From: a virus
Direction: 5' to 3' (one strand)
IMG/VR virus record: IMGVR_UViG_3300010885_033832
Coordinates: 1-64,000 of that record
DNA length: 64,000 nucleotides
Positions within the stretch are counted from its first letter, which is position 1, and each line of letters opens with the position of its first letter. The position numbers and the translations under genes were made by a program. The notes below the pieces were generated by a model. It did no database searches. It worked only from the letters and a program-made list of their open reading frames with translations, and was not told where the DNA came from. Positions 1 through 37,300 of this stretch are shown piece by piece.

Positions 1-374
1 ATCCCTGTAATGTTAAAAATAGCGTAGGTGTTGTCACCATTTGTGTTGCTTTTTATGATGAGTTGACCCTTGACAGTACTAGTGGAGTCTGCCCACGTCG
101 AAAGGTATGTTGTTACTGTTGCTCCGTCATACGTGGTCAGGGATACATCAATACTGGTAGTTGTTGCTGCGGTATTAGAATAAAATCTGATATTTCCTGA
201 ATTTACGTCATTCTCCCACGAAAAGTCTGAGTTGAAATAGTACTTCAGGCCGCCTTTGTCACCCTGGGCACCAGTGGGTCCCGTAGATCCTGTCGGACCC
301 GTAGGACCAATCGCCCCAGCAACAACTGGCTCCCACGCACTTGTGGAGCTATTGTAGGCTTTTACTTGAGTCAC
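1..374 (-). CDS. Collagen-like tail fibre/minor tail protein (runs off the window edge)
   Basis: Manual translation from GTG at 372-374: [41 protein letters not shown]..., open to position 1; Gly-X-Y repeats; not in the ORF track. Confidence 0.75.
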   Translation of the reverse strand, partial: MTQVKAYNSSTSAWEPVVAGAIGPTGPTGSTGPTGAQGDKGGLKYYFNSDFSWENDVNSGNIRFYSNTAATTTSIDVSLTTYDGATVTTYLSTWADSTSTVKGQLIIKSNTNGDNTYAIFNITG

Positions 375-547
375 TATTTATCTCCTACTGTTTCTTCTGG
401 CGTGGTACGCGCTAAAAACTCCACGTAGCGCGGGTTGGTCTCGTCTGCCGGGAACGATGTCACTGACCCGTCCTCATTGTGAATAACAATGTGTGACGTG
501 AATACACCTACGATGTCTGTCTCGACGTGCACTGTTTCCCAGTTCAT
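374..547 (-). CDS. Small tail-fibre-associated protein/assembly chaperone (57 aa)
   Basis: Manual translation [10 protein letters not shown]...SFPADETNPRYVEFLART...; start and stop overlap the neighbouring genes; PxDxxNxxY motif typical of small proteins that follow fibre genes. Confidence 0.65.
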   Translation of the reverse strand: MNWETVHVETDIVGVFTSHIVIHNEDGSVTSFPADETNPRYVEFLARTTPEETVGDK

Positions 548-2211
548 TATAGCTCCGCACTTGCTGCTAGGTATGGGACGGTTCCGCTTCCTACACCTTC
601 AAGAGCGTAGTTTATGCCCGCGCTTACGCCACTGTCTGCTAGGCTCACGGAAAGAAGTGTCGGCCTGCAGCCCGCCGCGTACAAGGTTATGGTGCCAGAG
701 ATAGTGTTAGAGCCGTTGTATCCGCGAAGGTTGTTGTACTCAATGGCTGTAGGCCTGACCCGCATTGTTGTTGGTAGAGGGATGCCAAAACGAGCGTTGT
801 TCCCGTCGTACCCAAAGCCGTGACCAAAGTACGTGACGTCTGTCGCGGCGCTTCCAGTAAAACGAATATAGTACCGCTGACACGCAGCCAACTCTGCTTG
901 AATACTGGGGGCGTTGCGACGGAACGGCGTAGCAACGGAGCCTTCTTCAAGTTGAACTCCAGTTATTTCGTAGTAGTCGTTTGCACCAGCCGTACCCACG
1001 GGAGTAAATTTCGTCTGCACGTGTAGTTGAGTTGCCAAAGATGAGACAGTCCCCGTGACTGAAAACCTTGTCCAAGTGGAAGTCAATGTAGCGTTTGTTG
1101 TTGCTACTGTTGCTTCACCTGACGGAGTAGTCGTTGCAAAGTTTTGGTCAGTACCTGTACTTGATAAAATGTTGGCGACCAGAATAGAACTTGCTGAAGA
1201 AAAGTTAGCCCCTGAACGTGCCCAGAAACTTAAGGTCACGGTTTCTCCAGCAAGGGCAAGTGAGTTGACCGTCTCGAAACTTTGCGTGTGATACATAACT
1301 GCAGTGCTTGTATTTCCCGAATCACGTTGTACTCGCGCGCAGTACTGAAACCCAGTGAGTCCAGAAGCAAATCGAGTGATAGTTATTCCTGTTGCCGCAG
1401 CAGCGCGAGCCTGAGTCCATCTGTCGGCGTTGTAAACAGCGTGTCCAGTGACACTTGTTCCTCGTTGCCAAATATCAAACGCACCGTTGATAATGTAGTT
1501 GTACGAGGGCGAAGTCGCGTTGACAAAGTTTGTGCCGTTGTAGAGAAGCGTCTGCCCAGTGGCCGCGGACGTGATGGCCACATCAGAGAGATCGTCACTT
1601 GATAAGAGTGAGTTAGCCCAGGCTGATCCTGAGTAACGAACCGTCTGCCCTGTAGCAGGAGACGAGACTGTGACATCATTGAGATCGTTGAACGCCATCT
1701 GAGTGCCATTGACCGTGGTGTCTCCCCACAACACATCGGTACTGACGGGTGCAGTGGCAGAGTAGACAATTCCTGCAGGACCAGTAGATCCTGTTGGACC
1801 GGAAACAGTTGAGTTAGCTCCTGTATTACCAGTTGCACCTGTTGCACCCGTTGGTCCAACCGCGCCAGTAGGTCCAGCCACCGTTGAGTTTGCTCCCGTT
1901 GCTCCAGTAACACCCGTGTTTCCTACCGCGCCAGTTGCACCTGTGACTCCCTGTGCCCCAGTATTTCCCACCGCGCCAGTCGGACCAGTATTTCCCGTAA
2001 GACCTGTATTCCCCGTGAGCCCCGTTGCTCCAGTGTTCCCAACCGCACCAGTTGCACCAGTAACACCCGTGTCGCCAACAGCTCCGGTTGATCCTGTTGG
2101 AGCGGGGGTGGTAACTGATTCCCAGACAACACCAGTCCACACCCATGATCGGGTACCGACAGTATGAATGTCGTTGACAAGGGGTGAGTTTGGGAAATCG
2201 ATTGCTGCCAT
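547..2211 (-). CDS. Tail fibre with collagen-like repeats and C-terminal carbohydrate-binding-like domain
   Basis: 554 aa; long G-x-T/G-A-V triplet run; [14 protein letters not shown] and [13 protein letters not shown] motifs typical of phage fibre beta-sandwich domains. Confidence 0.8.
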
Positions 2212-2229
2212 AATTATATTCTACCTGAC

Positions 2230-3537
2230 TTAGTATCCAGGATCCCCACCAACTATAGCCAGATTTTGTAGAAGAATGTCCGATGCACCACCATAGACTC
2301 CATTATTTAAGTATGATTCAAAAATACCGCCCAAAACTAATTTATCATTATTTAAATTAATTGAAAGACTATATATGGTAAGGGGTGTAGCTCCCGCATT
2401 AGACATAAATTTTGTATCTAGTGTAAAATCGGAGTTGAGTCTAAATATTGATGAATTACTTGCATATCCAGTAATGTATCCACTCGTGAGTGCTGATATC
2501 TTTCCATTACTGTGTCTAGACATTGAATCTATCTGTGGAGCAGAATTCTGTGCAAGATTCCAGCTTATTGCTGGGAGTGTGGCGTCGTATACTCCTAAAT
2601 TGCTTATTCTTACGATACATCGAGATGCATTACCCTTAAAAGTTGTAAAACTCCCATATGCAACAATATTATTTCCATCTGCTATAGCGCCAAATACTTG
2701 TCCACTAAATGCAGTGCCTAGATTTGTATTAAATGTTGTATATAAAGTTCCATCATTTTTTAGAGCTACTGCCCGGTTTATTGTGGTGCCATTAAAACTT
2801 GTAAAATTACCGACTACAAAATAATCAGTGGTGCCAGGAATATGTATAACTGATCTCACTGTTCCTGTGCTTGAGGTTCCAATATTTGTATTAAATGTTG
2901 TATCTGCTGTGCCATCGCTATTTAATCTATAAAGCCTATTTTTTGATACACCATTAAAAGATGTAAAATCTCCATAAATTAAAATTTTGTCATTTGAATC
3001 AACAAATACCCCATTTATTCCTAAATTTGCGCCAGTACCAGTATTAGTGATAAATGTCGTGTCTCTTGTCCCGTTAGCATTTAACCTGACAATTCTTCCT
3101 ACAGCGGACCCATTGAAGTTAGTAAAATCATCTCCAACAAGTATAATTTTGCCATCCGACTGTACGGCAATTCTATGTGGGAGCACACTAGAATATGGCG
3201 ATAAAAGAAATCCTGTTCCAACGTTCGTAAGAAAGTCCGTATCTATACTTAAGTCTTTATTTATTCTAATAATCCTGGGACAAGATACGCCGTTGTAAGC
3301 CGTGAAACTACCATAAAGAATTATTTTTTCATCTGATTGAACTGCTAGTGAAGCTAAAGATGAATTTGGACCAACGTATGTCACTGAGGTATCTAATAAA
3401 CCCCCAGATAGATATATTTGTTTCCAGGTTCCATTTATTTTTGTATATAGCTCTTTTGCTTGTACCCAGACTCCACCGGATTTTGCATATGGAGCAACTG
3501 ATGGGTATCCTGTTGGTGTTTTAGCGTATACGGTCAT
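2230..3537 (-). CDS. Delta-60-repeat beta-propeller protein (candidate receptor-binding/adhesin)
   Basis: Repeats such as AVQSDGKIILVG-FT-FNG---RIVRLN-NG--DT-F; visibly AT-rich compared with flanks. Confidence 0.75.
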   Translation of the reverse strand: MTVYAKTPTGYPSVAPYAKSGGVWVQAKELYTKINGTWKQIYLSGGLLDTSVTYVGPNSSLASLAVQSDEKIILYGSFTAYNGVSCPRIIRINKDLSIDTDFLTNVGTGFLLSPYSSVLPHRIAVQSDGKIILVGDDFTNFNGSAVGRIVRLNANGTRDTTFITNTGTGANLGINGVFVDSNDKILIYGDFTSFNGVSKNRLYRLNSDGTADTTFNTNIGTSSTGTVRSVIHIPGTTDYFVVGNFTSFNGTTINRAVALKNDGTLYTTFNTNLGTAFSGQVFGAIADGNNIVAYGSFTTFKGNASRCIVRISNLGVYDATLPAISWNLAQNSAPQIDSMSRHSNGKISALTSGYITGYASNSSIFRLNSDFTLDTKFMSNAGATPLTIYSLSINLNNDKLVLGGIFESYLNNGVYGGASDILLQNLAIVGGDPGY

Positions 3538-3539
3538 AT

Positions 3540-5465
3540 TTAATACCTAAACCATAGGTCGCCATTAGTGCCCCCTGTGGGTCCAGATGTAGAGATTGTT
3601 ACAGGATACACTGGGCCTGTAGATCCCGTTGACCCAGTCGAGCCAGTCGAGCCAGTGGCTCCTGTTGGGCCAGTTGGACCAGTAGGCCCGGTGGACCCTA
3701 CTTGACCTGGAACTGATCCAGTTGTTTCCACCCAGTAGGAGTCGTAGTAAACAAACTGCTTACCTGTTTCTGAGTTATACCAGACGTCCCCAGTCACTGG
3801 ACTTGGAATAGTAGGTGCTGTAGTTGACACAGTATATGTTCCTTTTGTGCCTGTAGGTCCTGTGAGTCCAGTTGCACCTGTGTTTCCGGTGAGACCTGTT
3901 GGGCCGACAGCACCCGTTTGGCCGACCTGCGTGTACATAACCTGAGTAATGCCGACAATGACTGAAGGCGTGACTGGGTGGACGGGGGAAGTTCCCGCCA
4001 CAGAGTGGTTGAGCGAAAGACTGGTATTGGTACCGTGCCAATAAATCTGAACATAGTCATTGACAGCAGTCGATGTTCCAACAAAAGTTACAGTTACGAG
4101 TTGGGCACTTGGCTCCCCCGCTGACTTTCGAGGGGAGATGGTGACGGTAGTAGACGAGTTAGCGTAGTCCGACCCATTCAGTTTGAGCCAGAAAGTGGCT
4201 TCTTCAACTGAGTTGGCTGTGTTGTATATTTGAGCAACAGCGGTCATGGTGTACGTGCCCGGTTGGGAAATAGTTATTTTGCTACTATCAACAATTGAAA
4301 TACCAGAAGATCCATTGGGGTAAGTAGAGTTGATTGTAACTACTTGAGCAGTATTGATATTTGCAATGGCTTGGTCAGTTGTGTCGTAGAACGATCCGTA
4401 GAGGCCAATAGTGCCGCCAGTTCCAGTTGGTCCAGTTGCGCCTGTATTGCCGATTGCACCTGTATTACCGACAGCTCCGGTTGCGCCAATCGCCCCAGTG
4501 TTTCCTACAGCTCCCGTGTTTCCGATTGCGCCAGTAACACCCGTGTTACCGACCGCCCCAGTATTTCCTACCGCGCCCGTTGGGCCCGTCGCACCCGTGT
4601 TACCGACAGCGCCCGTTGCGCCTATAGCACCCGTTGAGCCCGTTGGACCAGTAGGGCCAACAGATCCTCTAAGTTCAATGGCAATAAGAGTGGGAGAATC
4701 GGATGGAGAAGCTGATTCTCCATAAACCGTAGTATCCCCACCTTGAAATGCTTTGATGGTGTACGTGTAAGTTCCCGCAGCTACAGCGTCAACGTGCGAT
4801 ACGGCAAAAGGAATATTTGCAGAGGCCGTTGAGCCTTGATAAATAACAGCCTTGCCGAGTGCTGTCGTCCCACGATAAAGTTGAATATAGTTCCAAGCAC
4901 CACTTGTTGTGGGGTTTGCATCGCCAGTTCCCGATAGGTAGACAGGACCGCCAGTTGTTGTAATTGAAATCGTTGCAATAGTGGTGGGAGTAGTAGTATT
5001 TACAGTTACAGTTCCCGTAGTACTAGAAATTGCATAGTTCATGTTGCTAGGAGTTAGGGTCCCAGCCCCTGGTTGTTGTGGGTAGACAAGAACTTCGTTT
5101 GTGGCCGGATCAAAGGCAACAGTATACAGACCAGACGTACTTCCGAGCGAATCGTACGGCGCTTCGTATCGTAGTCCGTTAAGAATGAGGTGACCTTCAT
5201 TACCTACATTTAGAGAAAAACTTCCACCCGATGAGAGCGAAGTAATTTGAGACAAGTGCTCAGTGCTGATTGCTCCCAGCTCAATCTTGTTGCTGGTAAC
5301 GGCTCGATCTTGGACGTTGTCGGTAGCAACACCTGAACTAGCAATCTGGGTCGATCCAACAGAGTTTTCTTGGATCGTCTTCTTTTCGGTGGAGATAACT
5401 CTCGACTCGAGGTCGTTGAGCTTGTTTCCGACATTGCGGTTACGTCGTACGCGTCTAGTCGCCAA
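3540..5465 (-). CDS. Collagen-like minor tail/fibre protein
   Basis: 641 aa; three Gly-X-Y blocks separated by beta-rich domains; located in the tail module. Confidence 0.8.
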
Positions 5466-8400
5466 AGCCGTCCACCTCCCACTCAGGAATAACTTCCAGC
5501 GTAACTTGTTCAGGGAACGTCACACCGTCTGGGACGGTAACGGTATATGACTCAATTTTACGAACCAGCACGGTGTCCCTAGGCTCAAGGTCGGTGCTCA
5601 GTCGAGCCTGAATAAACGGGTCTCGTACTACAATACTACACCAGTCGCCAGGGGCATATGATCCGACGATGGGCTCTAACGACCCGTTAACACTGATGGA
5701 AAATTCAGCCATCGGCGGTGCGGCCTCGAGAGCGTATCGTCGAGCGTACCCATAAAGCACGGTTTTATTGTTGGCGTCATCGGCCTTCTCGTCAAAGTCA
5801 AGTAGCGGCCATTTGCGTCCCCGGGAACCATCGAGGAAGTCGGTGAGGGTAGCAACGCCAATGTTTGATCCGTAGTCGTCCCCCGCGTTCTCATTTCCGA
5901 CAACAAACATACGCGTGGCCGAGTCCTCGGCACTCTCATTAACGGAGAACTGGCCGATGTTTCCGGGGTACTCAAAGACCACTTCGTCTGCTCCGTACCT
6001 GCTTACGGGCGACACCACCCCGGCCGCTGGCGGGTTGGGGTACTCGAGAGGGAGCATAACAAAAGTCTTGGTAAAGGTCGATGTCGCCTCATCGTACTCG
6101 CAGTCAATTCGATAATCGAATCCGTCCACAGACGATGCGTACTTTTCTAGTGCCTCTCCAACAGTCGTGAGCTCAAATCCTCGGTGGATAGGGGGGTCGG
6201 TGTTGATGCCAGACGCCTCCCGGGTTGAGAACAGCAGCCCGATGTCGGCACTACCGGGGAAAGGACCAAACGTGCTGGCAATTGCAACAGGTCGGACAGT
6301 AGCTGAGCCTTGACTAATGATGAGTTCAGGAGATCGGTTATCATGCGTGACAGAGTATGAGAACGTCTTTGCCGTTGGGGCCGGACTAGACAGGATAGTT
6401 TTTGTTCCGTTATAGATGCTAGTGGCTTTAGCGTAGGCAACGGAGCTGACTACATCCTCTGTAATTGATGTGGTTTGTGCTCCAGCAGAGTAGTCAAAGA
6501 CATTGTTTGTAGCGTTACTAATTGTCTTATTAGTCCCATTGAATACACTGTTTTTAATGACGACACCAGCCAGTACTGGATCAGTCTTAAAATTTCGGGG
6601 AGGTGTTACAGCAAACGAAAGAGTACCACCATCAACCTTTGTGATAGTCCAATCACCATTTAAGATACTAGTCTTGGGAGTTACCTTAGGGTACGGCGTC
6701 TCAACATTCTTATCAGGTCGTTCTACAGCGACATTGGCAACTTCTGCTCCGTTTTGAACATAGGTAATCTGCGTAGTGGAGACACCAGTAAGCGGGTAGG
6801 TTCCGTTCATCGGGCTGAGAAAAAGAATTTTAGCAGCGGCCGCTGAAGAAGTTAGTGGTGAGTCGTAGGAGTTATTGATTTGATACGAGATTGTCGTAGC
6901 TGAAACTGCAGATACTTCGAAGTCTCCATTAAATATGGCCTCATTAGTAGTTACTGTCCCATCATCAGATTTTTCAGCTACGACAGTTTTCCTACCAGGT
7001 AATTTTATGTCCGCATCCCCGAGCACTACCTCATAGCTAAAACTATTGCTAGTCATGGGTTCGGTAACTCGATGCTCCCCACTAAACCCACCCCCCATGC
7101 TAGAGATTGTGACAGTATCCCCAGAGCTAAAGTTGTGCGGTCCACTCGTTGTAACAGTGGCATATCCACGAGAAGCTCGCTTGCTAATTAAATTTTCAGA
7201 GTCGGTACAACCTTGAACTTTAATCTTGGTACCAACCGTAATTCCATGACCTGTAGGGACAGTTAAAGTTGCTACCTCACTACCAATTCTTTGCTTCTGA
7301 ATAGTGACATAGTCATATATATCTTGGACTACTACATTATCGCCAATTGAGTAGGGGTGCTTGTATGTAGCATCTGTGCTCAGAGTGAGCGTGACGCTGT
7401 TACTAGTGCGAGACTTGTGAGTGACTATTATCGGTGTACTGATCCCAGAAACTTTTACTGTGTCACCATTTTTGAAGTTGACTGATTTAGAAGTCTTGAG
7501 TGTAGCAATATTATCTTTAACGTACACCGACTCGATGAAAGCTGCATCTTGAAGCCCTGTGATGTCAACTACATCACTGTCATTGAGAATGTGGTCTACT
7601 CCAGTTCGGATTGTGGCAGTACCAGTTCCAGATGCAACGCGAAGTGCTCGGGAGGAGATGGAGATAAGCGGAGATACGTTGGCTACCACAACCGACTGAC
7701 CCGCAGTAAACCCGTGGGCTTTATCTGTCGTGATGGTCGCAACATTGGAGGTAAGTTTTGCCTGCACAACACCAACCGCGCTGGCACCAACAGTAGCAGT
7801 AGCATTGTTAAAAGAAGTTTCTGGGATGCTAGCTTTAGACGCTTCTTGGTATGTAAAAGTTGTTGCCGTTGCGGCAGTAATTTTTTGTACTCCATTAAAG
7901 TAGCCTCCATACCCAAGGGATCCGATTTGAGTATTGACTTCTACGGTCTGTCCAACCCTGAATCCATGGTCTGCAGCTGTTGTGATTGTAGTTAGGCCCT
8001 CGACCGCCATCATCTTTGTAACGGTTGCTTTCGACTTTGCTACTGTAGTTGGGGAGAGTGTTCCGGTCTTTTCAAACGTAAACGTGGTGGGACTGGGAAC
8101 CGAGTAGACGCGATATTCACCATCAAAGTTATCGTCAACATTTTTGATCTGAACAGCCTGCTCCGAAACCAGACCGTGCGGCTGAGCCGTTGTGATGGTG
8201 GCAAACCCGTTAGCCAGTTTCTTAGAGACAATGTCGAGTGAGTAGCTGAGTCCGGGCTCAATGTAGACGTTGGGAAAGTTGACACCAACAAAGTCACTGG
8301 CCATGCCCGACAACAAATCTCGAATGTAGTCGTAGGTATCGGTACGCACTGAGACGTTGACATTATTGTAGGTTCCATCTGGAATAGTCCGAGTCCCTGT

Positions 8401-9159
8401 ACCAGTAATGGTAACACTATCGGCGTTGGCTAAGGTTAGGGCATATGAAAATTGCTTTCCGTCTACCCCCGACGCCGTAATTTTAAAGTCGGTTCCATTG
8501 ATACTAGTCAAGGAAGAAGCAATAGTGATAAGATCATCAGTCTTAAATTTGTGATCGTCAACGGTTGTGATGGTCACAACGTTGTCTGCAACTGAGGCAG
8601 AGGACAGCGTCGCCACACTATTGATACTACTAAGGGTGAATTGTTTAGTGGTGGGGGCAGGGCTTGACGCAATTGTGTAGATGCCGTCATACCGGAAGTC
8701 CGCAAACTGCAGTTCTACTGTGCGGCCAGACTTGAGAGCACCGCTAGTGTAGCCCAGGTCGAGATCAACGGTCCCAACTCCGCTGACCACGGTAAGCGTG
8801 GATCCGAGAGTGTGGCTGTAGGTCTTCCAAATCTTGCGGTGGTAGAGGTAGCTAGGGAACTCTGACCCACTGACAGATAGCGTTTTCTGAACGACGTCAT
8901 ACGATCGGGACCAAATAATCCCACCCCATACGCAGATTCCGTCTCGAACAATATATAGAGCGGTATTTCCAGGTGTCGTGCTGGAGTACAAGTTGAGATA
9001 GTTGGTCTGCTCGAACGTCGGGATAGACCCAGAGAAATAACCAGCACCGTTCAAGGCACGTTGATATGACACTCCACGGAATGGGATTTCCTCAAGAATT
9101 TCATTAGTGAGAAGATCGGCGGTGAAGTATCGATAAACGGGTGCGGATATGGTAGCCAT
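5455..9159 (-). CDS. Minor tail (baseplate hub-like) protein with inserted nested beta-barrel repeats
   Basis: 1234 aa; N-terminus ([10 protein letters not shown]...[15 protein letters not shown]) and C-terminus resemble actinophage minor tail proteins; many T-TT--HGF--G--V repeats in the middle. Confidence 0.8.
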
Positions 9160-9193: not shown

Positions 9194-11317
9194 CTACCCA
9201 ATCCAGCCCGAACGGTATTCTATTTCCGCAGAGGCTGTGCTGGATGTTCGTCGGGCCGTTTCTTCTGGAAAAGCCAGGGCCACATCTTCATTGGTTGCAC
9301 CAGAAGCAGGGACGGTAGTTGCATAAACCACCGTGTCATACCGGGGAATACTTGTGACAATCTTGTCGACAGCGTTGTAAAGATTTTTATTGGCTGGAAC
9401 AGTGACTGTACCAGTAGTGACAGCTTCAGCTTGATCTGTAGCAATGGGCAACGAATAGGTAAATGACGAGGCAGTTGGGACTAATACTACCGCTGTCGTA
9501 GTGGCATTGAATACGCTTGCGTCTAGGCTGTTTGCAGTTCCACCAGTGGCAACGGTAGTAATGTTTGAACCAAGTACCGCACCTGTTACCGAGTAGTAAA
9601 CAGTTGAGCTGGGAGTCGACGTGCTGGAGTCTACTGTAAAATTGCCGCTCAAAGTAGCATTCGTCTTGTTGGTGACAGTAGAACTGATACCAATTGGAGC
9701 AGTGGTACTGGGCTGAAGGCTAGACAATGCAAAAGTAAAAGAGGTAGCTGCCGCTGTCGCAATGGGATAGTCACTACCAAAGATTGGGAGTAATACTTCT
9801 GAGACAGTCCCAAAACCACTATCGACTGATTGAACTGAGTAGGCTGTTCCGCCCGTCACGGGGTAGCTAAATGTCGTGGGGTTGATTACAGTGACTAAAT
9901 TGTCATAGGTCCCATCAAACTCAGCGTTGGTCAAGTTTGCCACAGTGTCGGTAACTTCTTGGATGGAACCATCCACTGGGATGCCCGAGACAGGCGCTGT
10001 CAAACTACCGACTTCAGTAGAGGTTACCAAATACGCTCGAATTGTGTAAGTGTATGAGGTTCCAGCATTCAGAGTCAGACTGCTATCAATATAGCTAGGA
10101 TTTGTCATATTTCCAACAATGGATCCCGCCACACCAACCCCAGCAATTTGCACACCGTCTCGGTAGATTTTGTATCCTCCTGTGTTAGTCATACCAGCAG
10201 GGGCCGTCCACGATAGGCGAAGCTGTTTGGGGACTTCAATTGAGGCCAAAACTGTTGTTGCAATAATTGACGTAACAGCGAGAGCCGATGGGGCGGCCGC
10301 AAAGCCGGGCGCTGTTGCAGTTGCTGTGTTGGATGAACCACTCTCTGTGGTGGAGGTGATAGAGGTGACGTAGAACGAATATGAGAGACCAGGAGATAAG
10401 CCAGTGACGGAGAAGGTCTCAGCCGGGTCTGACGATATCGCTATAGTTTGAATAAGTACACCGTTTTGGTAGATTTTATAGCCATAGTTCCCCGCCACGG
10501 AGGCTGGTGGTGACCACGTCAAATCAATACGCCCCGATATGGCGTTCGGTGTAGCCACCATGTTTGTTGGGTTGCCTACTACTGCTGCAAAGTTTGCTGT
10601 CGCAGTTGCATAGCTGGAGGCTTTACTGGTGGTATTGTCTGCAATTGTTACTTCGTTTTTGGCTCTAACGTCGTAGTAGTAGAGAGTGTTGTTTGGTGCC
10701 GTGTACGAAAATGTTAGTGCAGCAGTACTACCGATTAGCGTTGTAATAGCTGTTGACGTTGTGCCCCGGTAAATGTCGTATCCAGTTACATTTGAGCCGC
10801 CGTCATCTGCGGGAGCGGCCCACGTAAAGTTAACAACACCCGAAGTACCGCTGGGGGTTGCTAGAAACGATGTTGGTGCATCTGGTGATTCGATGTACCG
10901 ATACTCGCAATACGCTGTTCCAGCCCAGGTATATCCAGTACCTTGTTGCGTGGTAGACCCTGAACCAGATCGCTTAAAATAGAGACCACCCTCAGTAGAT
11001 GGATTAAGTCGGAAATTAGTAGAGGTACCACCATAGACAATAGATCCAGAAAGTGTCAACCACGCAGAAAGCCCAGGGGATGAGTCAATGGCAACGTTAT
11101 TAAATGTTCCGCTAAACCCGCCAATGGAAGCAACGATGTTTCCCTTAAGATCATAAGACCCTACATAGGTGCGGAGCTCGGTAATTATCATTGGCTTATT
11201 GTCGTTGAATGCCGTTTTCACTGCAGCAGAGGGCAGTGTCACTGCTGTTTGTACGTAGCTTCCATCCTTACTATAAGGGGTGTAAGTTGTGCCACCAATT
11301 GTTACTGACGTTGCCAT
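9194..11317 (-). CDS. Minor tail protein with three fibronectin type III domains plus C-terminal half-repeats and a Dit-like terminal strand
   Basis: FN3 motifs (FTWAAPADDGGSNVTGYDIYR, LTWSPP...GLSPGLSYSFYV, LSWTAP...AGTSYTYTIRAY); ends AEIEYRSGWIG. Confidence 0.8.
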   Translation of the reverse strand: MATSVTIGGTTYTPYSKDGSYVQTAVTLPSAAVKTAFNDNKPMIITELRTYVGSYDLKGNIVASIGGFSGTFNNVAIDSSPGLSAWLTLSGSIVYGGTSTNFRLNPSTEGGLYFKRSGSGSTTQQGTGYTWAGTAYCEYRYIESPDAPTSFLATPSGTSGVVNFTWAAPADDGGSNVTGYDIYRGTTSTAITTLIGSTAALTFSYTAPNNTLYYYDVRAKNEVTIADNTTSKASSYATATANFAAVVGNPTNMVATPNAISGRIDLTWSPPASVAGNYGYKIYQNGVLIQTIAISSDPAETFSVTGLSPGLSYSFYVTSITSTTESGSSNTATATAPGFAAAPSALAVTSIIATTVLASIEVPKQLRLSWTAPAGMTNTGGYKIYRDGVQIAGVGVAGSIVGNMTNPSYIDSSLTLNAGTSYTYTIRAYLVTSTEVGSLTAPVSGIPVDGSIQEVTDTVANLTNAEFDGTYDNLVTVINPTTFSYPVTGGTAYSVQSVDSGFGTVSEVLLPIFGSDYPIATAAATSFTFALSSLQPSTTAPIGISSTVTNKTNATLSGNFTVDSSTSTPSSTVYYSVTGAVLGSNITTVATGGTANSLDASVFNATTTAVVLVPTASSFTYSLPIATDQAEAVTTGTVTVPANKNLYNAVDKIVTSIPRYDTVVYATTVPASGATNEDVALAFPEETARRTSSTASAEIEYRSGWIG

Positions 11318-11320
11318 GCG

Positions 11321-14275
11321 CTAGCTCGCCTTCGTGTATGTGAATGTCGTGGGGGATGGGACGGATGTGATGGCCGTACCCGCACTGTTAAGTCCAGTGT
11401 TGGTCAAATTTGTGATTGTTCCGGTGGCCGTACCGTCCTCTACTACGGCAGCAGTTTGTGAACCAAAGTAGTAGTAGGTGAAAGACGTCGTAGTCGGGAT
11501 GGACTGAATGTAGTAGGTACCCTCATATGAGTCGTAGGTACTATTAAATAAGGGGCTGATTTGATCCCCAATTGAGAACCCATGCGCGGCTGTTGTTGTG
11601 ACGGTGACAAGCTGAGTGGCATATCCGCCGTAAGCAAAGGCGTCAACTGTGGCGGTGGTTGGCAGATCGATAACTACACGGTCGCCAAGGGAGAATCCAT
11701 GTGCAGCTGTAGTGATCATAGTCACCGTTGTTCCGCTCAGAGCCTTGAGGGCCAGAGTTGTGCTCACTGGGAGGACAACCGACGCATCCCCACCACTGGT
11801 CAATCCGTGCGCTGTTCGAGTAGTAAGTGTTGCAACGCCCGATTCGTTCATGCTCTTAGTGGCAATTGAGGAAAGGGACGGACTAGCAATATTGATTATG
11901 TCGCCCGCGGCAAATCCGTGTGCTGGTTGAGTTGTAATTGTCACAATATCGGTACTGGTGTTAAAAGCGTACGATGTTGCGGTGGTCGTAGAGGGGAGTG
12001 CCACATTAATTCGACTACCATCAGCCCAAGAATGGTTTGAGTTGAGGGTGAGAGTGGCAATATCAGTTGTAGCGTTATAGGCTTTTTGCGTAATGTTTCG
12101 TTCTTCTGTCCCCTCTACTGTAACAAGATCACCAATACCAAGACCATGAGCAGTTTGTGTACTGACAGTTACAATATCAGTTGACGCAACTGCCGAAGTC
12201 GTTGAGATATCAAGAATTTCTGGCAAGAAAACATTTACTGTATCTCCCAATCCAAGGAAGTGTGCCCGATCAAATTTGAGTGTAGCAAGAATAATTTTTG
12301 CGGTGCCCGAATCTGACCCCGCTCCAGCTACGTTTCCACTCGTCGTATGATCAAATGAAAAAGTAAATGGTGACTCGGTAGTGACTCCAGTAATAGACCA
12401 CAGCCCATTGAAAGCACCAGACCCATTAGTAGTCCCTGAAACTCTAACGGGGTATCCAATTTTAAACCCGTGAGCAGCGGAGGTTGTGACCGTTACAGTC
12501 GAGCCGCTTCGCGTTGTATTAGTGATAGTAGCGGTAGTAGTTGCGTACGATTTATTTACAGTGTTGTAGTTATCAAAGCTGTCAGTGAGAGTGATATCAG
12601 TCGAACCAGCGTCAAGTTTGATCCAGTCAATGAGAGGCTCGAGCTTGGAACGCTGACCAACAGTGATGCCATTGAATGATACTTCTTTATTGTAGGTGTC
12701 TACTACCAAAGTGTCTGGGTTTGTGAGCTTTACATCAACCCCGCCGCTAATTGTGGTGGTGACAATGTCTTCCCCATCATCAGTTCCAAATAGAAGTACA
12801 TCGACTAGCGAGTAAGAGAATGTATATGGCGTCTCAGTGGTGGTAGCAGTGACAACATGACTACCCCCTTGCGGGTCGATGTTCGGGTCATTAGATAGCC
12901 AATTAAAAGAAATGGTATCCCCCACTAACAAACCGTGGTCAGCATCAGTAGTAACTGTGACTATCAAGTTATCTCGGGTGTACGACGTACCCCGTGCAAT
13001 GGCCCCAGCATCACGCAACGCCGAAACAAGTGTGATTGTTTCGTCACGGTCTCGGCTTGTAGCATGGATGGTACTTCCCGACCCGATGGGTCCGAGAACA
13101 GTGATACTTGGCGTGACTGTTGTGTTTCCGGCGTTTACTGCCGTCACTGATTTTGATGCACCCGTTGGGCTAGTGGTGGTGTCGGGGACCAGACCATTAA
13201 TACTCTTGACTTCATATCCATTAACCTGGTTGTCAGCCCATGCGTACTTGATTGGGTCAGCGGCCCGAAGAGTGATAGAGAACTCGGTACGACCGCGAGC
13301 GTTTACCGTCGTAATGATTGGCTGTCCGACAAGACGAACTTTGGCAACCTTGGTGGGAACCTCGTCGACACGGAGAGTTGAGACGCGCCGAACCAAGTCT
13401 GTTTCAGTAATTAGTCGGCCAAGTGCCTTGGGGAGGTAGTCCCGGCTTTGAGGGAGGAATACTCCCGAGAGCGTAATGACGCGAGCCATGTAGCGTCCTG
13501 AGACATCGAACGATCCGTCTTCGGTACCGCGTGTGATATCTGGAACGTCGGGAGATGTCTGCCCCCACCAACCAGTGAGGTCTGTACAGACCCACACGGT
13601 GCCATCTTCATCGATGGTGTTAAATATGAGGCGTCCTAGGGAGATGTCGGCATTGAGCTCTGGTCCCGTGATATGTGGGATTGGCGTTGGGGTGAGCGCG
13701 CGGTTGACAAGTTCTTTTTCGCGTCCCTGTTCGTTAGCAGGGGTATCGCTGAGTTGATCAAAGTATTCATTAACCTGAGAAGCCTGCTCGATGAGAAGAG
13801 CATCGAGATAGAAGATTTCACTCGCTGTAGAAACATCAGTAGTAGCTTGGATTGTTGCAATAGCGTAAGAAACCCCAGTAGGTGCTGTTGTTACGATAGA
13901 GAGTCGGTTATCTTCCCAGCGGTCAGTGTCGTATACGCGGTGGATACCCGAGGTTGGCGATGTAGAACCAAGTGTGTTGTTACTACTGTCGTAGAACGTG
14001 ACCAGCATTTCAATGTCGTTGTAGTACGCAGTAGCGGTGGGGTTGTCTGGTAGGTACACATACACCGAGAACGCATAAGACAGACCTGCGGTAAATCCGG
14101 TGATGTTGGTGGTAGTAGTGCCGTAGAGGCCTGTACCCTTGTTGGTGATCTTGAGAGAATTGTCACCAAAGAACGAGACATTGCTCGATCGAAGGATGGT
14201 GGAGTTGGAGGTTGCTTCCCACCCCGTTGTGTTAGTTTTGAAAGACGGGTTGGGGGCTAGATTAATTCGTGCCAT
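11321..14275 (-). CDS. Distal-tail (Dit)-like minor tail protein with N-terminal carbohydrate-binding-like domain and beta-barrel repeats
   Basis: Directly after the tape measure gene; NLAPNPSF---TTGW N-terminus; Dit-like LTGWW...DG...R-ITLSG...LRAADP segment; HGF repeats. Confidence 0.75.
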   Translation of the reverse strand: MARINLAPNPSFKTNTTGWEATSNSTILRSSNVSFFGDNSLKITNKGTGLYGTTTTNITGFTAGLSYAFSVYVYLPDNPTATAYYNDIEMLVTFYDSSNNTLGSTSPTSGIHRVYDTDRWEDNRLSIVTTAPTGVSYAIATIQATTDVSTASEIFYLDALLIEQASQVNEYFDQLSDTPANEQGREKELVNRALTPTPIPHITGPELNADISLGRLIFNTIDEDGTVWVCTDLTGWWGQTSPDVPDITRGTEDGSFDVSGRYMARVITLSGVFLPQSRDYLPKALGRLITETDLVRRVSTLRVDEVPTKVAKVRLVGQPIITTVNARGRTEFSITLRAADPIKYAWADNQVNGYEVKSINGLVPDTTTSPTGASKSVTAVNAGNTTVTPSITVLGPIGSGSTIHATSRDRDETITLVSALRDAGAIARGTSYTRDNLIVTVTTDADHGLLVGDTISFNWLSNDPNIDPQGGSHVVTATTTETPYTFSYSLVDVLLFGTDDGEDIVTTTISGGVDVKLTNPDTLVVDTYNKEVSFNGITVGQRSKLEPLIDWIKLDAGSTDITLTDSFDNYNTVNKSYATTTATITNTTRSGSTVTVTTSAAHGFKIGYPVRVSGTTNGSGAFNGLWSITGVTTESPFTFSFDHTTSGNVAGAGSDSGTAKIILATLKFDRAHFLGLGDTVNVFLPEILDISTTSAVASTDIVTVSTQTAHGLGIGDLVTVEGTEERNITQKAYNATTDIATLTLNSNHSWADGSRINVALPSTTTATSYAFNTSTDIVTITTQPAHGFAAGDIINIASPSLSSIATKSMNESGVATLTTRTAHGLTSGGDASVVLPVSTTLALKALSGTTVTMITTAAHGFSLGDRVVIDLPTTATVDAFAYGGYATQLVTVTTTAAHGFSIGDQISPLFNSTYDSYEGTYYIQSIPTTTSFTYYYFGSQTAAVVEDGTATGTITNLTNTGLNSAGTAITSVPSPTTFTYTKAS

Positions 14276-21254: not shown

Positions 21255-22283
21255 TTAGGGCGCTCCAGTTGGGCCTGTCTGCGCGACTACCACGTTGTCG
21301 ATGGCGTTGTCAGCGTTGTAGTTGACGTTTCCAGGAACGTTGATAGCGATGTCGCTGTCAAGAGATCCTGTTGCAACTTCGGCGTAGGATCCGTAGCTCG
21401 TGACGGTTCCAGTGTCCGTGCCAGGTGCTGCAATAGTAGCTGTCTTGGCAACGGTGAAGGTAGTCGTCGTAGGAACAGTTGCAATGGTGTAGGTTCCATT
21501 GACGGTGGTACTTGTACCTGCCGCGATAGTTACCTCCTCACCAACGCGGAATCCGTGTGCGCCATCCGTGGTGACGGTAGTAACGCTACCAGCAGCAGTA
21601 ACGTTAGTGATCGTGTCAGTAACACCCCACGTGTAGAAGCCCTTGAGTCCGGTTGGAGCCCATGTCGAACGTGCGTACGAGTAGGGACGGTCCGAAGCCT
21701 GTGGGAACTCCCAGCGGTTGTCGGGTCCGAAGTCAAACGCAATGTTTCCAAGGCCGTAACCTTCGAATGTCGTTGCGAGCATTCCGTTCTCGATAACGCG
21801 GTCGCCCGACTGACGGAGCTTGGCGAATGGGAAAACCCAGTGGAAGTAGGGGTACGAAGCAGCCTTACGTCCATCCTTGATGGCAATCGACCAAGCTTCA
21901 ATGGAAACACCGTTACCAGCAGGGTCGTCTCCAACGCCGGGAGCAGCCCAACCAATGGACTGTACTGCCGATCCGGTGTTCTTGCGAAGCAAGAGTCCAC
22001 CAGAGAGGAGGGCCGAGAGTTCGGGGTCGGGCTCACAGATAGCGAGTTCCATTGTGATGCGCTTGAGTGTGTCGGGGGACTTGTATGTCACGCAGACAGC
22101 ACCGTTGGCGCTCTTTTCCGTGAATTCGTCACCTTCTTCATACTCGGGGGTGAACGATACGCGCATAAACGCGGATGTGGTGTATGAGTCACCAGCACCG
22201 TTCAGAAGGTTGCCGTTGGCATCGAGGCGGGTAACACGAATGGCAACACCTTGAATGCTGGCGGCGTAGTCTTGAGTAGCCAT
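21255..22283 (-). CDS. Major tail protein with a C-terminal beta-barrel (HGF) accessory domain
   Basis: SIQGVAIRVTRLD-NG, EEGDEFTEKSANG-VCV motifs; one complete TVTT--AHGF-VG...NGTYTI...TFT repeat. Confidence 0.85.
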   Translation of the reverse strand: MATQDYAASIQGVAIRVTRLDANGNLLNGAGDSYTTSAFMRVSFTPEYEEGDEFTEKSANGAVCVTYKSPDTLKRITMELAICEPDPELSALLSGGLLLRKNTGSAVQSIGWAAPGVGDDPAGNGVSIEAWSIAIKDGRKAASYPYFHWVFPFAKLRQSGDRVIENGMLATTFEGYGLGNIAFDFGPDNRWEFPQASDRPYSYARSTWAPTGLKGFYTWGVTDTITNVTAAGSVTTVTTDGAHGFRVGEEVTIAAGTSTTVNGTYTIATVPTTTTFTVAKTATIAAPGTDTGTVTSYGSYAEVATGSLDSDIAINVPGNVNYNADNAIDNVVVAQTGPTGAP

Positions 22284-31384: not shown

Positions 31385-34300
31385 CTATGCTAACTCGTCT
31401 GGGGTGAACCCCATCAATTCTAGTGCCTGCATGATCTCTTCGATTGAGGCGTTGTAGCGGTTAGCCACACCACCAGCAGAGTACTCAAGCGGTACGGACA
31501 TACGACCCTCAGACATGGCTTTCCGGTACTGAGCAAGAAGCGCATATCGGTCGAAGATCTCAGCCATAGTATCGGGCGAGAGCTGGCTCTGGCCTGTGGT
31601 CGGTGCTTGGCGAGAACCTGCGCCCTTGCCTGAATCTTCTGGCTTGTCAGCAGAATCTCCGCCCATCAAGAAATCAAAACTCTTGAGGATGTCGAGTACG
31701 TCCTCTGAAGCTTTTGGCGCTGGCGTCTCTTCTACTGGCTCGGCTGGAGGCTGCGCGGGCTTGCGCGGTGGACGTGGCTTACGCGGCGCTTTGGGGGGAG
31801 TAACTGTCTCAGTGGGCGGAGCCACTTCTGGGGTGTCTGGCGCAACAGGCACCTCTGGAACCTCAGGAACCTCAGGTGCGTCAGCAGGCTCAGCAAAGTA
31901 CGCGTTGAGCTTATCCAGCTCACCATCAAACAGCGCAGCAAACTGACGACGAACTTCTGGAATAACCACTCCTGCATTCTCTTTAGCTCGGAGTCGCTTG
32001 AAGATTAATCCTTCATAGAGTCCACGCAGGTTAGTTTTACGCTTATACAGCGCCTCAATTGCTGGATCGCCGGTGGGGATCTCGAGAGACGGATTGTTGT
32101 TGCGATCAACTAAGAACTTAGCAAACCCAAGAAGCTGTTCCTCCGAGAACTTCTCCAGAATTGGGAATGGAGCATCCCCGGGAATACGTCGCCAGTCTAG
32201 TGAGTTGTCGAAGGGCTCTGGGAGTGCCGGGAAGTCCTGGTAGTGAGTAGAAGTAGAAGTTGGGCTTCTCCACTGCACGCTTGGGTTCTCAAGGTTGATT
32301 CCCTCAGGCAGAGCCATCGTTGCTCGGGACGCCCGTCGTGCGCGGGAGCTGGTGCTGGCAGGTCCTGCGCCTTTCTCCTTGCCCTTTTCCTGCTCTTCGT
32401 AGGCTTCTTTGTACTGTTCAATGAAGAAGTCAGTTGGGTAGGCGGACGTGGTGGTACTCCAGATGTCGTAATCCTCGAGATCCTTTTTATCGATTCCACG
32501 TTCTTGGAGAAGATCCTCTACTGTGGCGGCGATTTCCAGGAGGCGAGCCATGTTACCAATATCCATGGCTTCTTCAGCTCGGGAGAGAGCGACATAGAGC
32601 ATGTTAGCCTGTTGCATAATCTCGTCATCTGAGAGATCACGGAGTTCGCGCTTTGGCTCACCATCTGCGTTCTTTTCAACTTCCCAGAAAGCAAAGACAC
32701 TGTCACCTACCTTAACATTGGGGGCTTCCAGACCTTTTGCGCCGTGCACGGTCAGCAAGGCCACATCGTAGCCCAGCTCGTCAGTGTAGGGGTCGCCAGA
32801 TTTAGTTCCATCAATCAATGCGCTGTACTTTGTACGAGCCGACTTGTCGACAGCGCTCATCTGGAAAACAGTTTGACCCGGACGGATTGTCTCATATTGA
32901 GCGTAGGCCACGGCGTAGAAGAGATCATCGGTAGATTCTTTGTTCTTTGCTCTACCGTCGATAAACTGACCAACTACCTCTTCGCGCGGCTTGGGCGACC
33001 CAACAGCCTTGCCGTTAGACCATAGTGTCAACATATCTTCGCCGTCAGAGCCTTCACTAACAATATATGTGCGAAGACTCTCAATGGTAGGAGTCCCCTC
33101 TTCATCAGGGGCTCCCTCGAGTCCAAAAGTAACAAGGTTTCCCGCTCCCAATGAGTACTTGAAGTCAATTAAGCCGGGTAGATTTTGCTTAAGAGAGGGT
33201 TTTTCGTTAGGACTATTGGTTCTCTTTTTGTCCTCTTTGCCCAGATTATTTGTGTAAAACTTAGAGAACTCTCCTGGAGTAGGTTTGTCGGCTTTTTCAG
33301 CCTCACGATACGTAGACTCAAATCCGAGGACATTGAGAGCGTCTTTACTGAGTGGGTTGTGCACCGAAGCATCTGCTTGGTACTTGAGACCACCGTCCAG
33401 GATTGATACAGTGACAATCTTTGTGCCTTCATTGCGCTCGAAGAGAAGCTCAACAACGCCCTCACCGAGGATTACACTAGGATTGCCAGCTTTGTTAATT
33501 TTATCTGGGTCCCGGAGTACGTTTCCGTCTTCATCACGGAGGGCAAAATTGGTGGAGGTGTAGAACTGCTTGACAATCGGCTTACCACCAGCGGCCCGGA
33601 ACTCAGCGTCAGTTGGCATACTGACATCGCCCATCAACTTGTCTTTGTCGAGAGCTTCAATTCTACTGCGGGCTTTGGCTGCTTCTTTGAGCAAGACATT
33701 GACTGTATCAGAGCCTGGGTACACATTTGCAATTCTCATACCCTCGAACTCTTTGTCGGTGGTGTTGAATTTAATTAATTCAAGCTCTTCCCGCAGTCTG
33801 TCTGAGATGTTTGGATCGGCCAGCAGGTCACGCTTGGAGCGCTCGAGTCGCTGACGGAAGCCTAACAATCCAATGTTCGAACCTGTGATTCTAAGGTTTA
33901 ACAGCTCGGAAGACTTTCCCTTTGTAACCGCGTACTTGAATCTGCCGGGAACGAGGGGCTCAAAGTCAAACCCATCACCATCAAGATCAGCCATCCGCTG
34001 AGGAATGTTGGGAGTTATTAGTCCCTCATACTCTTCGACATAGTCCTTTTGTCCGGAGATCAGGTATGAAGGCTTGGGAGATACAGTCTGACGGATAAGT
34101 CGGAGCATTTCTTGACGCCGTTCAACTGCCTTGACAACTACATCTTTCTTTATGGTTTTTCCGTCAGAAGATTTTTCTTTTACGGTTTTGGTATCATCCG
34201 AAATCATGCCAAATTCTTCGGCGACTCGGAGGAAGGCAATCACCTTGGAAGACAAGCCAGCACCACCTTTTCGGTACTTATCCATGATAGATTGCTCACC

Positions 34301-37300
34301 GCTAGTTCCAGGAGCGTTCAACCGAAGATCGGGGTAGTTTTGGAATACGCCCATTTCATGGTTGGCAAATGCCTCTTTACGAGACCTAGTTGTTGGTCTC
34401 ATTTGCATCAAACTTAGAGCTTCAATGTTTGTGATGAACTCTTCACGTCGGTTGGCGTTGATTGCAACGCGACGTCCAGCAGAGGCATATGTAGGTAGGA
34501 CACCTAAGAGTGCGGTGTTAGTGGCTTCGATGTGCATGTCAACTTGTTCAGTTGGCATAGAAGTGCCGCCAGCGCGCTTGATAGCCGCTTGAATTTCAGG
34601 AGTCATCTTTTTCAAAACTTCGGGGGGAAGAATTCTAGAGAAGATTTTTCCCTTGGGTGCTTCGTCTGACTTGCCAGAGGTAGTACGAAGCGGCTCACCC
34701 ATCAACCACAGTGGGACGTTCGCCACATCAACGAGTGCCTGGGGGGAGCGGTATGTTTTGGTAAGACCATTCTTGACGTCAGCGACGCTATCTGCTTGAT
34801 CGTAGAACTTGAACATCTGGTTGACAGCACCACGGAACGCGTACAGAGCTTGTCGGTTGTCACCGACTACAACCACTTGCACAGCTAGCCCATCTTCGTT
34901 CGGCATAGCAAGCTGGTTTACTAGGTCGATTTGTGCAGCGTTAAGGTCCTGAGCTTCATCAACAAACAGAGTGTCTGCTGTGGAACCTCCAGGGACTTTT
35001 TTCACAACATTGGCAAGGCCCGATAACTGCCAAATCTTTGACAACATAGAGTTAGTGACTGGAAGCGGGGAGAAGGGCTGTCCATCGATAGCGCTAAACG
35101 CCAGCTTATTCTTGATGGTGATAGGGACCGTTATATTTTCGTCCCACATCCTCTGTGCAATTTTGACATAGTCCCATGCAAGCGCCTCATCTTTAAGAAC
35201 CTTTTTTCTTAGAGCTGAGCTCATGTGTGGGAGCAGGTGATCTAGTGTTATTTTTCTATCTGCTGTAGACGCAAATCCATTCGCAATACCGCTCATGAGG
35301 TCGCTAAAAATAATATCAGAAGTTATTTTGTCATCTTTACTGATTACTACTTCTTCAATACCGTAAAGCTCGGTGGCCTCATAAGCAGACATAAATGAGG
35401 TGCTATCTAGTTTGGCGGACCTTCCGTCTTTGGCTCCCATCGACAAGTCGAGCTTGGCGTTGAGAGTGGCTCGTTTTGTTGCTTTGAGGTCAGAGTCAAC
35501 GTAGGTTGTGTTGGGGTCGTCGAGTGTCATTTCTACCCCGAAGAAACCCAAGCTGTCCAAGGTTCGAGCCTGTACGTTGGCTCCAAATCGAGCAGCGGCT
35601 TCCTCGGCAGTGCTACGGTTGAACGCGGCCAAGAGTATCTTGTGTTCGGGGAACATATCGGACAACAGTTTGAGCGTACTGGTTTTTCCGGTACCAGCGC
35701 GGGCGACAATCACCATACTCTGGTTCTGACCAAAGTCGTTGATGATCTTCAGCTGTTGCTCACTGGGGGTAATACCAGTCTGTTGGTAGACCTGCTCAGC
35801 GGTATACGTCCGGGCCTTGTAGCCACCCACTTTTCCTCGACGAATCTTGGAGAAGTTGTCAGGCTCGCCAGACTTGCTCACACGCGAGGCGGCCCCAGTA
35901 CCAGTTGAATTTTGCTGATCCGACAGGGCGTCGCGGAGGCTTTGCTTCTTATCGGAGATGAAGATCATGCCAGAGTCAATCTCGGAAATGAGCGCACTCT
36001 TTTGGGCATCGCTAATCGGGTCTTCTTCGGTGAGATCGGTTTCAGGGGAGACACGGTACCACTGGCCGTCTTCACCCTTGGCGTAGGTGTCCAAGGAGAC
36101 CTGACGAGCGCCCTTAGTTGACTCTCCATCTGCGCCTGCGATTACGTCGCGGGAAATACGAGCACCTGTTGGAGCCACATCGAAGATGTCCGCCGACGTT
36201 ACGCGGGTACGAGAAGCAGACTGGTTACGGTCCTGAGAAGTGACCGGACGCTCAGAGTTGGTAAGGCTCGGAGTGAAAGGAGCGCGCGAACCGCTAATCT
36301 CAGACTGACCGTCGGCTGCATCAAGAGCGTCAAACACCTCAGACGATGAATACGAACGCGTGTTGTCGGAGACTCCAGCATCGTCAGCCGCGTACCACAG
36401 TCCGTCGGATCCCCGGACAAAGTTGTCTACTCCGTTGGATACTATATCTCCAGCAGTTGCTGAGTTGAGATCGTCAACGGTAGAGATAGACATATCAATC
36501 TCATCGGGCAGCGCTGCACCAGCGCCCTTACCTTCTTCAGCATCTTCTTGTTTAGGTGCTCGTCCTCGGTCAGGACGGCGGCCCGATGCTTCGGTAAAGG
36601 CAGCGATGACACGCTGGACGGTTTCTTGTCGTTCTTGCGCCTTAGCAATTCGCTCGCTGTACCCATTGAGGATTTCGCGCTGTTCGTCCGTCAGGTACTG
36701 CTCGTCAGGGTTGTCAAGCGAGTTGGCGTATTCGCTCTTCTCGTTGTTTAGTTCCCCGAGAAGTTCTTGGTACTCACGCCACTTACGGAGTGCCTGTTTG
36801 CGTCGACGAGCAAACTCCTCAATGGGGATACTGAGGAAGTCGCGGTAGTTAGTCGACTCTGTGTAATCTTCTTCGTCCTCGCTAGCAGCAGAAGGCCTCG
36901 ATCCGTCGCCATCACTCGGCTCGGGCTCTGGTTTGCTTGGCTCGCTGGGTAGGGCACCCGGACCCTTGGGTGGTGGGTTACCTTCAAGAGGGAGGAATGG
37001 ACCAGACGGTCCTCGGCCATCAGGCTGTCCGTCTTGAGAGTCGCTTTTACCCTTCTTTCCCAACTCAATGAGTGGGATAAGTCCGCCAAAGAATTCGATG
37101 TGCTTGATGTAACCAACCATGTCGTTTTCGTCGTACATCTTGCGAATCTGGACAGAGCGCTTATACGCCCAACGATCCCAGAGTGCCCGCTCATTGGGGT
37201 CCAGTCGCTGAAGGAACTTGTACGAGTCAGTGACAAAGTCTGAACGCTCTTTTTCGGCGCGCTGAAAGTTAGCGAAAGCTGCGGCTTTTTCAGAGGCAGA

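Follow-up and report, generated by a model that had tools for sequence, protein, structure and literature searches.

A 64,000-nucleotide stretch of virus DNA, referred to here as the window (positions 1 to 64,000 of IMG/VR virus record IMGVR_UViG_3300010885_033832), was analysed with respect to one of its tail genes. The gene (5455..9159), from a large actinobacterial phage, encodes a 1234-residue minor tail protein, P0001, and lies on the minus (-) strand, as do all parts of P0001 described below. Residues 466-955 of this protein very probably form six FCCH-type barrels nested one within another. The assignment of P0001 was based on the list of open reading frames (ORFs), the translation and two profile matches. 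P0001 matched the phrog_1885 minor tail protein profile with an E-value of 2.1e-27 (best stretch residues 7-124) and the Pfam family E1_FCCH (PF16190) with 37.3 bits against a gathering cut-off of 29.5 (residues 192-230). Several orthologues also matched E1_FCCH, part of them slightly below the cut-off, in a Pfam scan of six members of the alignment. Pfam and NCBIfam scans of P0001 revealed neither an adenylation nor a catalytic domain of E1 enzymes, and the NCBIfam scan gave no match of any kind. Judged from these profile scans, P0001 carries the E1 FCCH fold without E1 function. Sequence searches of the PDB with P0001 and with the family profile gave no meaningful match to solved structures.

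Barrel halves in the P0001 sequence

The original prediction described six N-terminal half-domains (N-halves) in series, followed by six C-terminal halves (C-halves), and all twelve half motifs that it cited occur in the translation of the gene. Positions 6300-7790 of the window, where the series had been placed, encode residues 457-954. For detection of the halves, hidden Markov models (HMMs) were built on intact copies of the barrel from P0001 and 120 homologues, then divided into models of strands 1-3 (N-half) and strands 4-6 (C-half) and refined by iteration. In P0001, N-halves were found to start at residues 468, 513, 548, 582, 627 and 659, and C-halves at residues 691, 741, 782, 831 and 914. 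The N-half at 513 was weak (independent E-value (iE) 0.88), and the C-half at 873 was visible as a motif below HMM detection. All twelve halves, six N and six C, are canonical in the family consensus, including those at 513 and 873. The HMM scan and the consensus together confirmed the predicted series for residues 466-955.

On the outward path, the N-halves are N1 of the outermost barrel (residues 466-496; 7672..7764; HMM iE 2.4e-11), N2 (497-536; 7552..7671), N3 (537-576; 7432..7551), N4 (577-614; 7318..7431; HMM iE 4.3e-6) and N5 (615-651; 7207..7317). The sixth N-half and its C-half form one contiguous innermost barrel, N6+C6 (residues 652-740; 6940..7206), whose tip loop, at about 711-740, is variable. 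The return path consists of C5 (741-780; 6820..6939) and C3 (833-872; 6544..6663), both identified by HMM and structural span, C4 between them (781-832; 6664..6819), identified by HMM and covariation, then C2 (873-914; 6418..6543), identified by its motif and the structural span that ends at 914, and finally C1 (915-955; 6295..6417), identified by HMM and covariation. At every split level the break point falls between a "V-T-V-S/G" strand and "(F/Y)-N-G", that is, in one common loop. The predicted turn at GGG is present in the sequence, but it is the β3-β4 loop of the intact innermost domain and nothing more.

Among the 924 possible orderings of six N-halves and six C-halves, a single one gives NNNNNNCCCCCC. 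The order was kept strictly, N then C, in 98 of 100 whole-array orthologues, most of which are only ~30% identical over the array region. On the basis of these two observations, both made on sequence, the N-then-C order is not due to chance. Six plus six halves were detected outright in 48 of the orthologues. When a double-length gap was counted as one missed half, 68 of the 98 ordered arrays were six plus six. Array length among the orthologues ranged from 452 to 536 residues. No DNA-level repeats were found in the array, which indicates that it is ancient.

Intact copies of the barrel, with the N-half directly followed by the C-half, had been reported earlier in the protein and in the major tail protein, and both locations were recovered. 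P0001 contains barrel A (residues 187-243; 8431..8601; Pfam and HMM), barrel B (312-365; 8065..8226; HMM) and barrel C (383-440; 7840..8013; HMM). The 342-residue major tail protein (window 21255..22283 (-); phrog_792 over residues 8-187) has one terminal intact FCCH-type barrel at about 230-279. A degenerate seventh barrel-like unit was seen ahead of the first intact copy of P0001, at residues 119-178 (window 8626-8805), with a partial HMM match over 142-175.

A simple relative was available for comparison. The minor tail protein of the Actinomycetia phage DSL-LC01 is an orthologue at the same gene position, 659 residues long, and has tandem intact barrels only, in contrast to the nest of P0001. 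Its gene directly follows those of the tape measure and a simple 385-residue Dit/minor tail protein. The N- and C-terminal domains of the two proteins are 40-48% identical. Residues 914-1234 of P0001 align with residues 345-659 of the DSL-LC01 homologue, so that C1 corresponds to the C-half of the last intact DSL-LC01 barrel and is followed at once by the common C-terminal domain. Because C1 aligns in this way, the array can be described as ~420 residues inserted into that barrel's loop. Barrel A of P0001 is absent from the DSL-LC01 homologue and is therefore regarded as a separate insertion.

Pairing of the halves in predicted structures

Two AlphaFold2 (AF2) models were calculated. The first comprised residues 440-960, with an alignment of 50 full-length homologues, and reached a predicted local distance difference test (pLDDT) score of 89.9 and a predicted template modelling (pTM) score of 0.74. 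The second comprised the balanced inner fragment 537-872 and reached a pLDDT of 92.7 and a pTM of 0.83, with confident ends. The excised fragment thus folds better in AF2, as nesting predicts for a balanced fragment. Pairing was read out with an exhaustive structure aligner able to bridge large gaps, with which the models were compared to 48,161 PDB chains. Compact PDB barrels of ~90 residues aligned to ~65-81 model residues, and the ends of the aligned region were the start of one N-half and the end of the C-half of the same level. The matching barrels were FAD-binding domains of the FNR type, EF-Tu domain 2, EF-Sec, eRF3 and ribosomal barrels, each a contiguous stretch of ~85-100 residues in its own chain.

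For level 2 (residues 496/497..914; 57/58..475 of the first model) more than 10 single-barrel matches were obtained, among them 1tll_B (Z score 6.8), 5ogx_A (Z 6.6) and residues 1..92 of 1qfj_A (Z 5.9). Level 3 (537..872; 1..336 of the second model) also gave more than 10 matches, including EF-Tu domain 2 (5i4q_C, Z 7.3) and EF-Sec (Z 7.0). For level 5 (615-618..780) about 10 matches were obtained over 79-82..244 of the second model, with 8qq5_A at Z 7.2, and the level was also matched over 176/177..341 of the first model. The innermost barrel of the predicted model is a closed six-stranded β-barrel that superposes on the FCCH domain of E1 enzymes. Level 6 (652-740) matched the UBA1/UBA6 FCCH domains with Z 8.6-9.5, a root mean square deviation of 2.2-2.5 Å and 75 aligned residues, the mouse FCCH structure 2v31 with Z 7.4, and the barrel domain of phage endosialidases with Z 9-9.9 (phi92, 9.9). 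In the AF2 models, levels 2, 3, 5 and 6 are therefore domains built in mirror order, the split levels from distant chain segments, and covariation backs levels 1 and 4.

Covariation was calculated on a set of 101 orthologous arrays (effective number of sequences, 83) from which columns with ≥5% gaps had been removed. Mean-field direct coupling analysis (DCA) on all columns was dominated by indel columns and became usable only after the gappy ones had been taken out. Of the long-range N-by-C pairs, 44 of the 80 obtained by mean-field DCA, and 35 of the 89 obtained by mutual information (MI) with average product correction, fell in cells that combine an N-half with the C-half of its own level, against an expected share of about one in six. 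N1-C1 was the top cell of its row (28 and 14 pairs), and so was N4-C4 (10 and 5 pairs). The residue pairs 583-809 and 581-809, both of N4-C4, ranked among the strongest long-range MI pairs.

The insertion of each domain into the same loop of the previous one was the central claim of the original prediction. It agrees with the mirror-half spans of levels 2, 3, 5 and 6, weakly with that of level 1, and for level 4 with covariation and elimination. Local contacts of solenoid or tandem type had been named as the outcome that would speak against nesting; in the AF2 models compact barrels join distant halves, as expected of a nest. Several points count against the nested reading. Pairing was derived indirectly, from the first and last aligned residue of each match. 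Level 1 (451..937; 12..498 of the first model) had one weak match, at Z 5.8, and its pairing is drawn from this match together with covariation and the intact domain of the DSL-LC01 relative. No structural match of its own was obtained for level 4 in the searches with either model, and covariation and elimination suggest its pairing. With the few sequences available, covariation was noisy for levels 2, 3 and 6, and the stray column 650 paired with C1. The AF2 models and the covariation analysis use overlapping homologue sets, and the two are not independent. Finally, a monomer model is compatible with pairing between the subunits of a trimer.

This last point leads to an alternative in which the halves pair between chains. 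The N-halves of one hub subunit, which probably belongs to a trimer, would combine with the C-halves of its neighbour to give one intertwined, domain-swapped fibre and not three arms. Many phage fibres are intertwined trimers. N- and C-halves apparently reside on two gene products in the Dit-like neighbour genes described below, so that pairing across chains seems possible, and contacts within and between chains look alike to monomer AF2 and to covariation. However, N equals C within the single chain of P0001, the N6 and C6 halves are linked by a normal short loop as in the intact copies, and the monomer model is confident throughout. We consider pairing between chains improbable.

Still less credible, and in our view very improbable indeed, is an array without any nesting. 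In that case one β-structure, either a solenoid or stacked hairpins, would consist of the six N-halves and a second one of the six C-halves, and the likeness to half-domains would be a relic. The weak or undetected sequence signals of N2 and C2 in P0001 would fit such an arrangement, as would certain distant proteins with far more N- than C-halves. Those proteins, however, end directly behind their small number of C-halves, as does the split neighbour gene, and so are not folds of N-halves only. Single compact barrels match spans that link distant halves, long-range covariation falls on N- and C-halves of the same level, and in DSL-LC01 the place of N1...C1 is taken by an intact barrel. All of this argues for nested barrels.

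Depth among relatives and comparison with known systems

The original prediction also held that the length of the structure can change by nested duplication. This was supported over long evolutionary distances, where depths of 1, 2, 4, 6 and at least 7 were observed, but not within the orthologues, where depth is fixed at six. Small barrel-only proteins retrieved with the array as query showed other balanced bracket shapes, namely NNCC (P0196), N(NC)(NC)C (P0198) and (N(NC)C)(NC) (P0179), and P0191 is about four levels deep, with four N-halves and three C-halves detected. Co-duplication was examined by comparing the similarity matrices of N-halves and of C-halves between levels; the correlation was not significant (r 0.37; exact Mantel 121/720). 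Levels 2-3 and 4-5 were among the closest in both matrices.

Extra material was seen in some relatives. P0125 (six N- and six C-halves detected), P0111 (one N-half fewer) and P0132 (only two C-halves detected) retain a nest similar to that of P0001, and each has an additional module of ~220-250 residues with no Pfam match, sited on the outward path between N2 and N3 in P0125 and P0132. In P0091 the additional material lies between C-halves. These insertions resemble side branches of the arm.

The closest parallel in architecture is the Si3 insert of the cyanobacterial RNA polymerase β' subunit (RpoC2). In its crystal structure, 8EMB, sandwich-barrel hybrid motifs (SBHMs) 2 to 5 are built from distant chain segments, and the seven SBHMs extend over 150 Å (PMC10895346). 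A 2026 survey of 2.7 million domains placed the cyanobacterial RNA polymerase at the extreme of nesting, with six levels (PMC13114784). In Si3 as in P0001, a small β domain is repeated, the chain folds back on itself and copies are formed from distant segments. By E-value, Si3 8EMB ranked first among the Foldseek matches of the model (1.4e-5, ~600 aligned columns), but with a template modelling (TM) score of only 0.08-0.10. Among the top 1000 chains of the Foldseek search, nearly all matches were to the innermost barrel, one row covered level 2 (57..475), and there was no further information on Si3. The Si3 unit is a sandwich-barrel hybrid motif, whereas the best matches of the single P0001 domains are barrels of the FCCH and of the FNR/EF-Tu type. 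Si3 occupies the trigger loop of an enzyme, where it moves during catalysis, whereas the P0001 array is part of a phage tail protein. In Si3 only SBHM-2 to -5 are discontinuous; in P0001 all barrels but the innermost, five of six, are split, in a single strict series. Si3 is probably an analogue in grammar and not a fold homologue. Deep self-nesting of a domain is rare, and in P0001 an apparently different fold reaches the six-level depth of Si3 in a protein of a virus particle, where it has been kept across more than 100 relatives. No relevant paper came up in literature searches on phage tail proteins with nested or recursive insertions; the build has been published for the cyanobacterial RNA polymerase, and for phage tails it was not found in the literature searched.

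The innermost P0001 barrel has the same fold as the FCCH domain of the E1 enzymes UBA1 and UBA6 (PF16190) and as the barrel of the endosialidases of K1F and phi92 (Z 8.6-9.9 over 75-79 aligned residues). The matched barrel is internal in the chain in both cases, at 424..506 of 666 residues in K1F and 215..295 of 987 in UBA1. In endosialidases and E1 enzymes the barrel is itself an inserted domain, which implies that its ends are adjacent. There it occurs as a single copy in a different host domain, whereas the copies in P0001 are hosted by the same domain. Among predicted viral structures, BFVD includes a model of a P0001 orthologue (TM score 0.51), and the next-best BFVD matches were cyanophage fibre proteins. 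An FCCH decoration domain has been described on the siphovirus tail tube proteins gp39 and gp13, where it faces outward (PMC13576161). The domain is there used on the outer surface of the tail, and the barrel on the major tail protein of the present phage resembles it. The siphovirus tube domain is a single terminal domain without insertion, unlike the P0001 array.

Tail-tip context and possible role of the arm

On the same strand the gene order is a 1276-residue tape measure, a 984-residue Dit-like minor tail protein, a 707-residue fn3 protein, P0001, a collagen-like fibre, a DUF5122 propeller and a further fibre. The P0001 gene thus lies downstream of the tape measure and Dit-like genes, in the position of a Tal-type gene. 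The nearest cultured relatives are "minor tail proteins" of Microbacterium phages of 186-195 kb, at ~40% identity. The N-terminal conserved domain of P0001 (residues 1-125; 8785..9159) is common to small minor tail proteins of Streptomyces phages. The C-terminal conserved domain (residues 956-1234; 5458..6294) is 48% identical to the DSL-LC01 homologue and is probably Tal-like (Sipho_Gp37/Prophage_tail). As a lead only, language-model neighbours of residues 950-1234 carry PF14594 (Sipho_Gp37) or PF06605 (Prophage_tail), with a score of 0.93. The DSL-LC01 homologue matched Prophage_tail PF06605 with 14 bits, below the cut-off of 31.3. Gene position, language-model neighbours and this sub-threshold match together point to P0001 being a Tal-type tail-tip hub, a membership that profile scores do not establish: in P0001 no Pfam or NCBIfam match to the Tal profiles (PF06605/PF14594) exceeded the cut-off, which speaks against the assignment.

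In the proposed architecture, each barrel would be interrupted in its β3-β4 loop by the next one. The chain would run outward through strands 1-3 of levels 1 to 6, close the innermost barrel (652-740) and return through strands 4-6 of levels 5 to 1. A rod that starts from mid-chain requires an outward and a return path; nesting provides both, and every junction between barrels would be crossed by two chain segments. Entry to and exit from the array would both lie in the level 1 barrel. Since the 490-residue array would begin and end in the same barrel, it would project as a side arm from mid-chain, and we infer from the Tal position that it stands out from the middle of a tail-tip hub subunit. 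An outer barrel closes only once its C-half has been made, and folding would therefore proceed from tip to base. Five barrels would have to stay open until translation reaches the far end of the array, and the protein is therefore a useful folding problem.

The arm may be a fairly stiff strut or an adhesin that reaches toward the cell wall. The rigid fibre proposed in the original prediction was judged from pTM, and the high pTM of the models fits a fixed geometry between the domains. By likeness to Si3, the arm could be roughly 150 Å long. Longer relatives contain carbohydrate- or peptidoglycan-binding modules (CBM_4_9 or PF01471) in the same protein. Together with the occurrence of the barrel as an outer decoration of the tail tube and on the Dit arm, this suggests a binding role. 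The arm is probably adhesive; we infer its shape, stiffness, oligomeric state and binding. A hypervariable tip was looked for and none was found, the entropy being 1.9-2.15 bits at every level, and this result gives no support to a receptor-binding tip and weighs against a specialised one. Indels cluster in the tip loop, at 717-726 only.

The uniform conservation along the arm without a hypervariable tip and the fixed depth of six are also what would be expected if nesting were real but functionally neutral. The array would then be a frozen accident of repeated insertions and a spacer without a binding role. However, it has been kept down to ~30% identity in more than 100 orthologues, the same domain also decorates the outside of the tube and the Dit arm, and relatives carry CBM_4_9 and peptidoglycan-binding modules. 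Spacer and binding roles are moreover compatible with each other. A neutral array is considered unlikely, although clearly less so than either alternative to nesting.

A broader and tentative proposal, to which we give somewhat less than even chances, treats self-insertion of the FCCH-type barrel as a general, evolvable grammar. It would produce stiff mid-chain arms on both Tal and Dit proteins, with reach set by depth, folding from tip to base, and halves that perhaps complement each other across two gene products. If true, phage adhesion devices would gain a new class, and the deep folding of domains within domains could be studied in a natural system. The array itself probably belongs to the machinery with which large Microbacterium-type phages adsorb, as a component that has so far gone unrecognised; these phages grow in laboratory culture, and the protein is labelled in them only "minor tail protein."

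Further barrel halves were observed in the gene region of the Dit-like protein (window 9194-14275 (-), including the 707-residue ORF). The 984-residue protein contains two intact barrels, seven N-halves (664-906) and only two C-halves (917-981), and then ends at a TAG stop. The 707-residue ORF is in the same frame as the 984-residue gene and begins one codon after its stop ("...KAS*RM..."), with weak C-half matches over 467-622. In many database proteins, for example P0135, P0140, P0145, P0150, P0153, P0170 and P0189, the pattern is the same: eight or nine N-halves are followed by about three C-halves, after which the protein ends. The nest of the Dit arm therefore appears to be either shared between two gene products or dependent on read-through of the stop codon.

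Three genes downstream of the P0001 gene (window 547-5465 (-)) encode a 641-residue collagen-repeat fibre, a 435-residue DUF5122 β-propeller protein and a 554-residue tail-fibre protein, which are likely the distal fibres of the P0001 tail tip. Elsewhere in the window, a single ORF of 4425 codons (31385-44662 (-)) adjoins the head genes.

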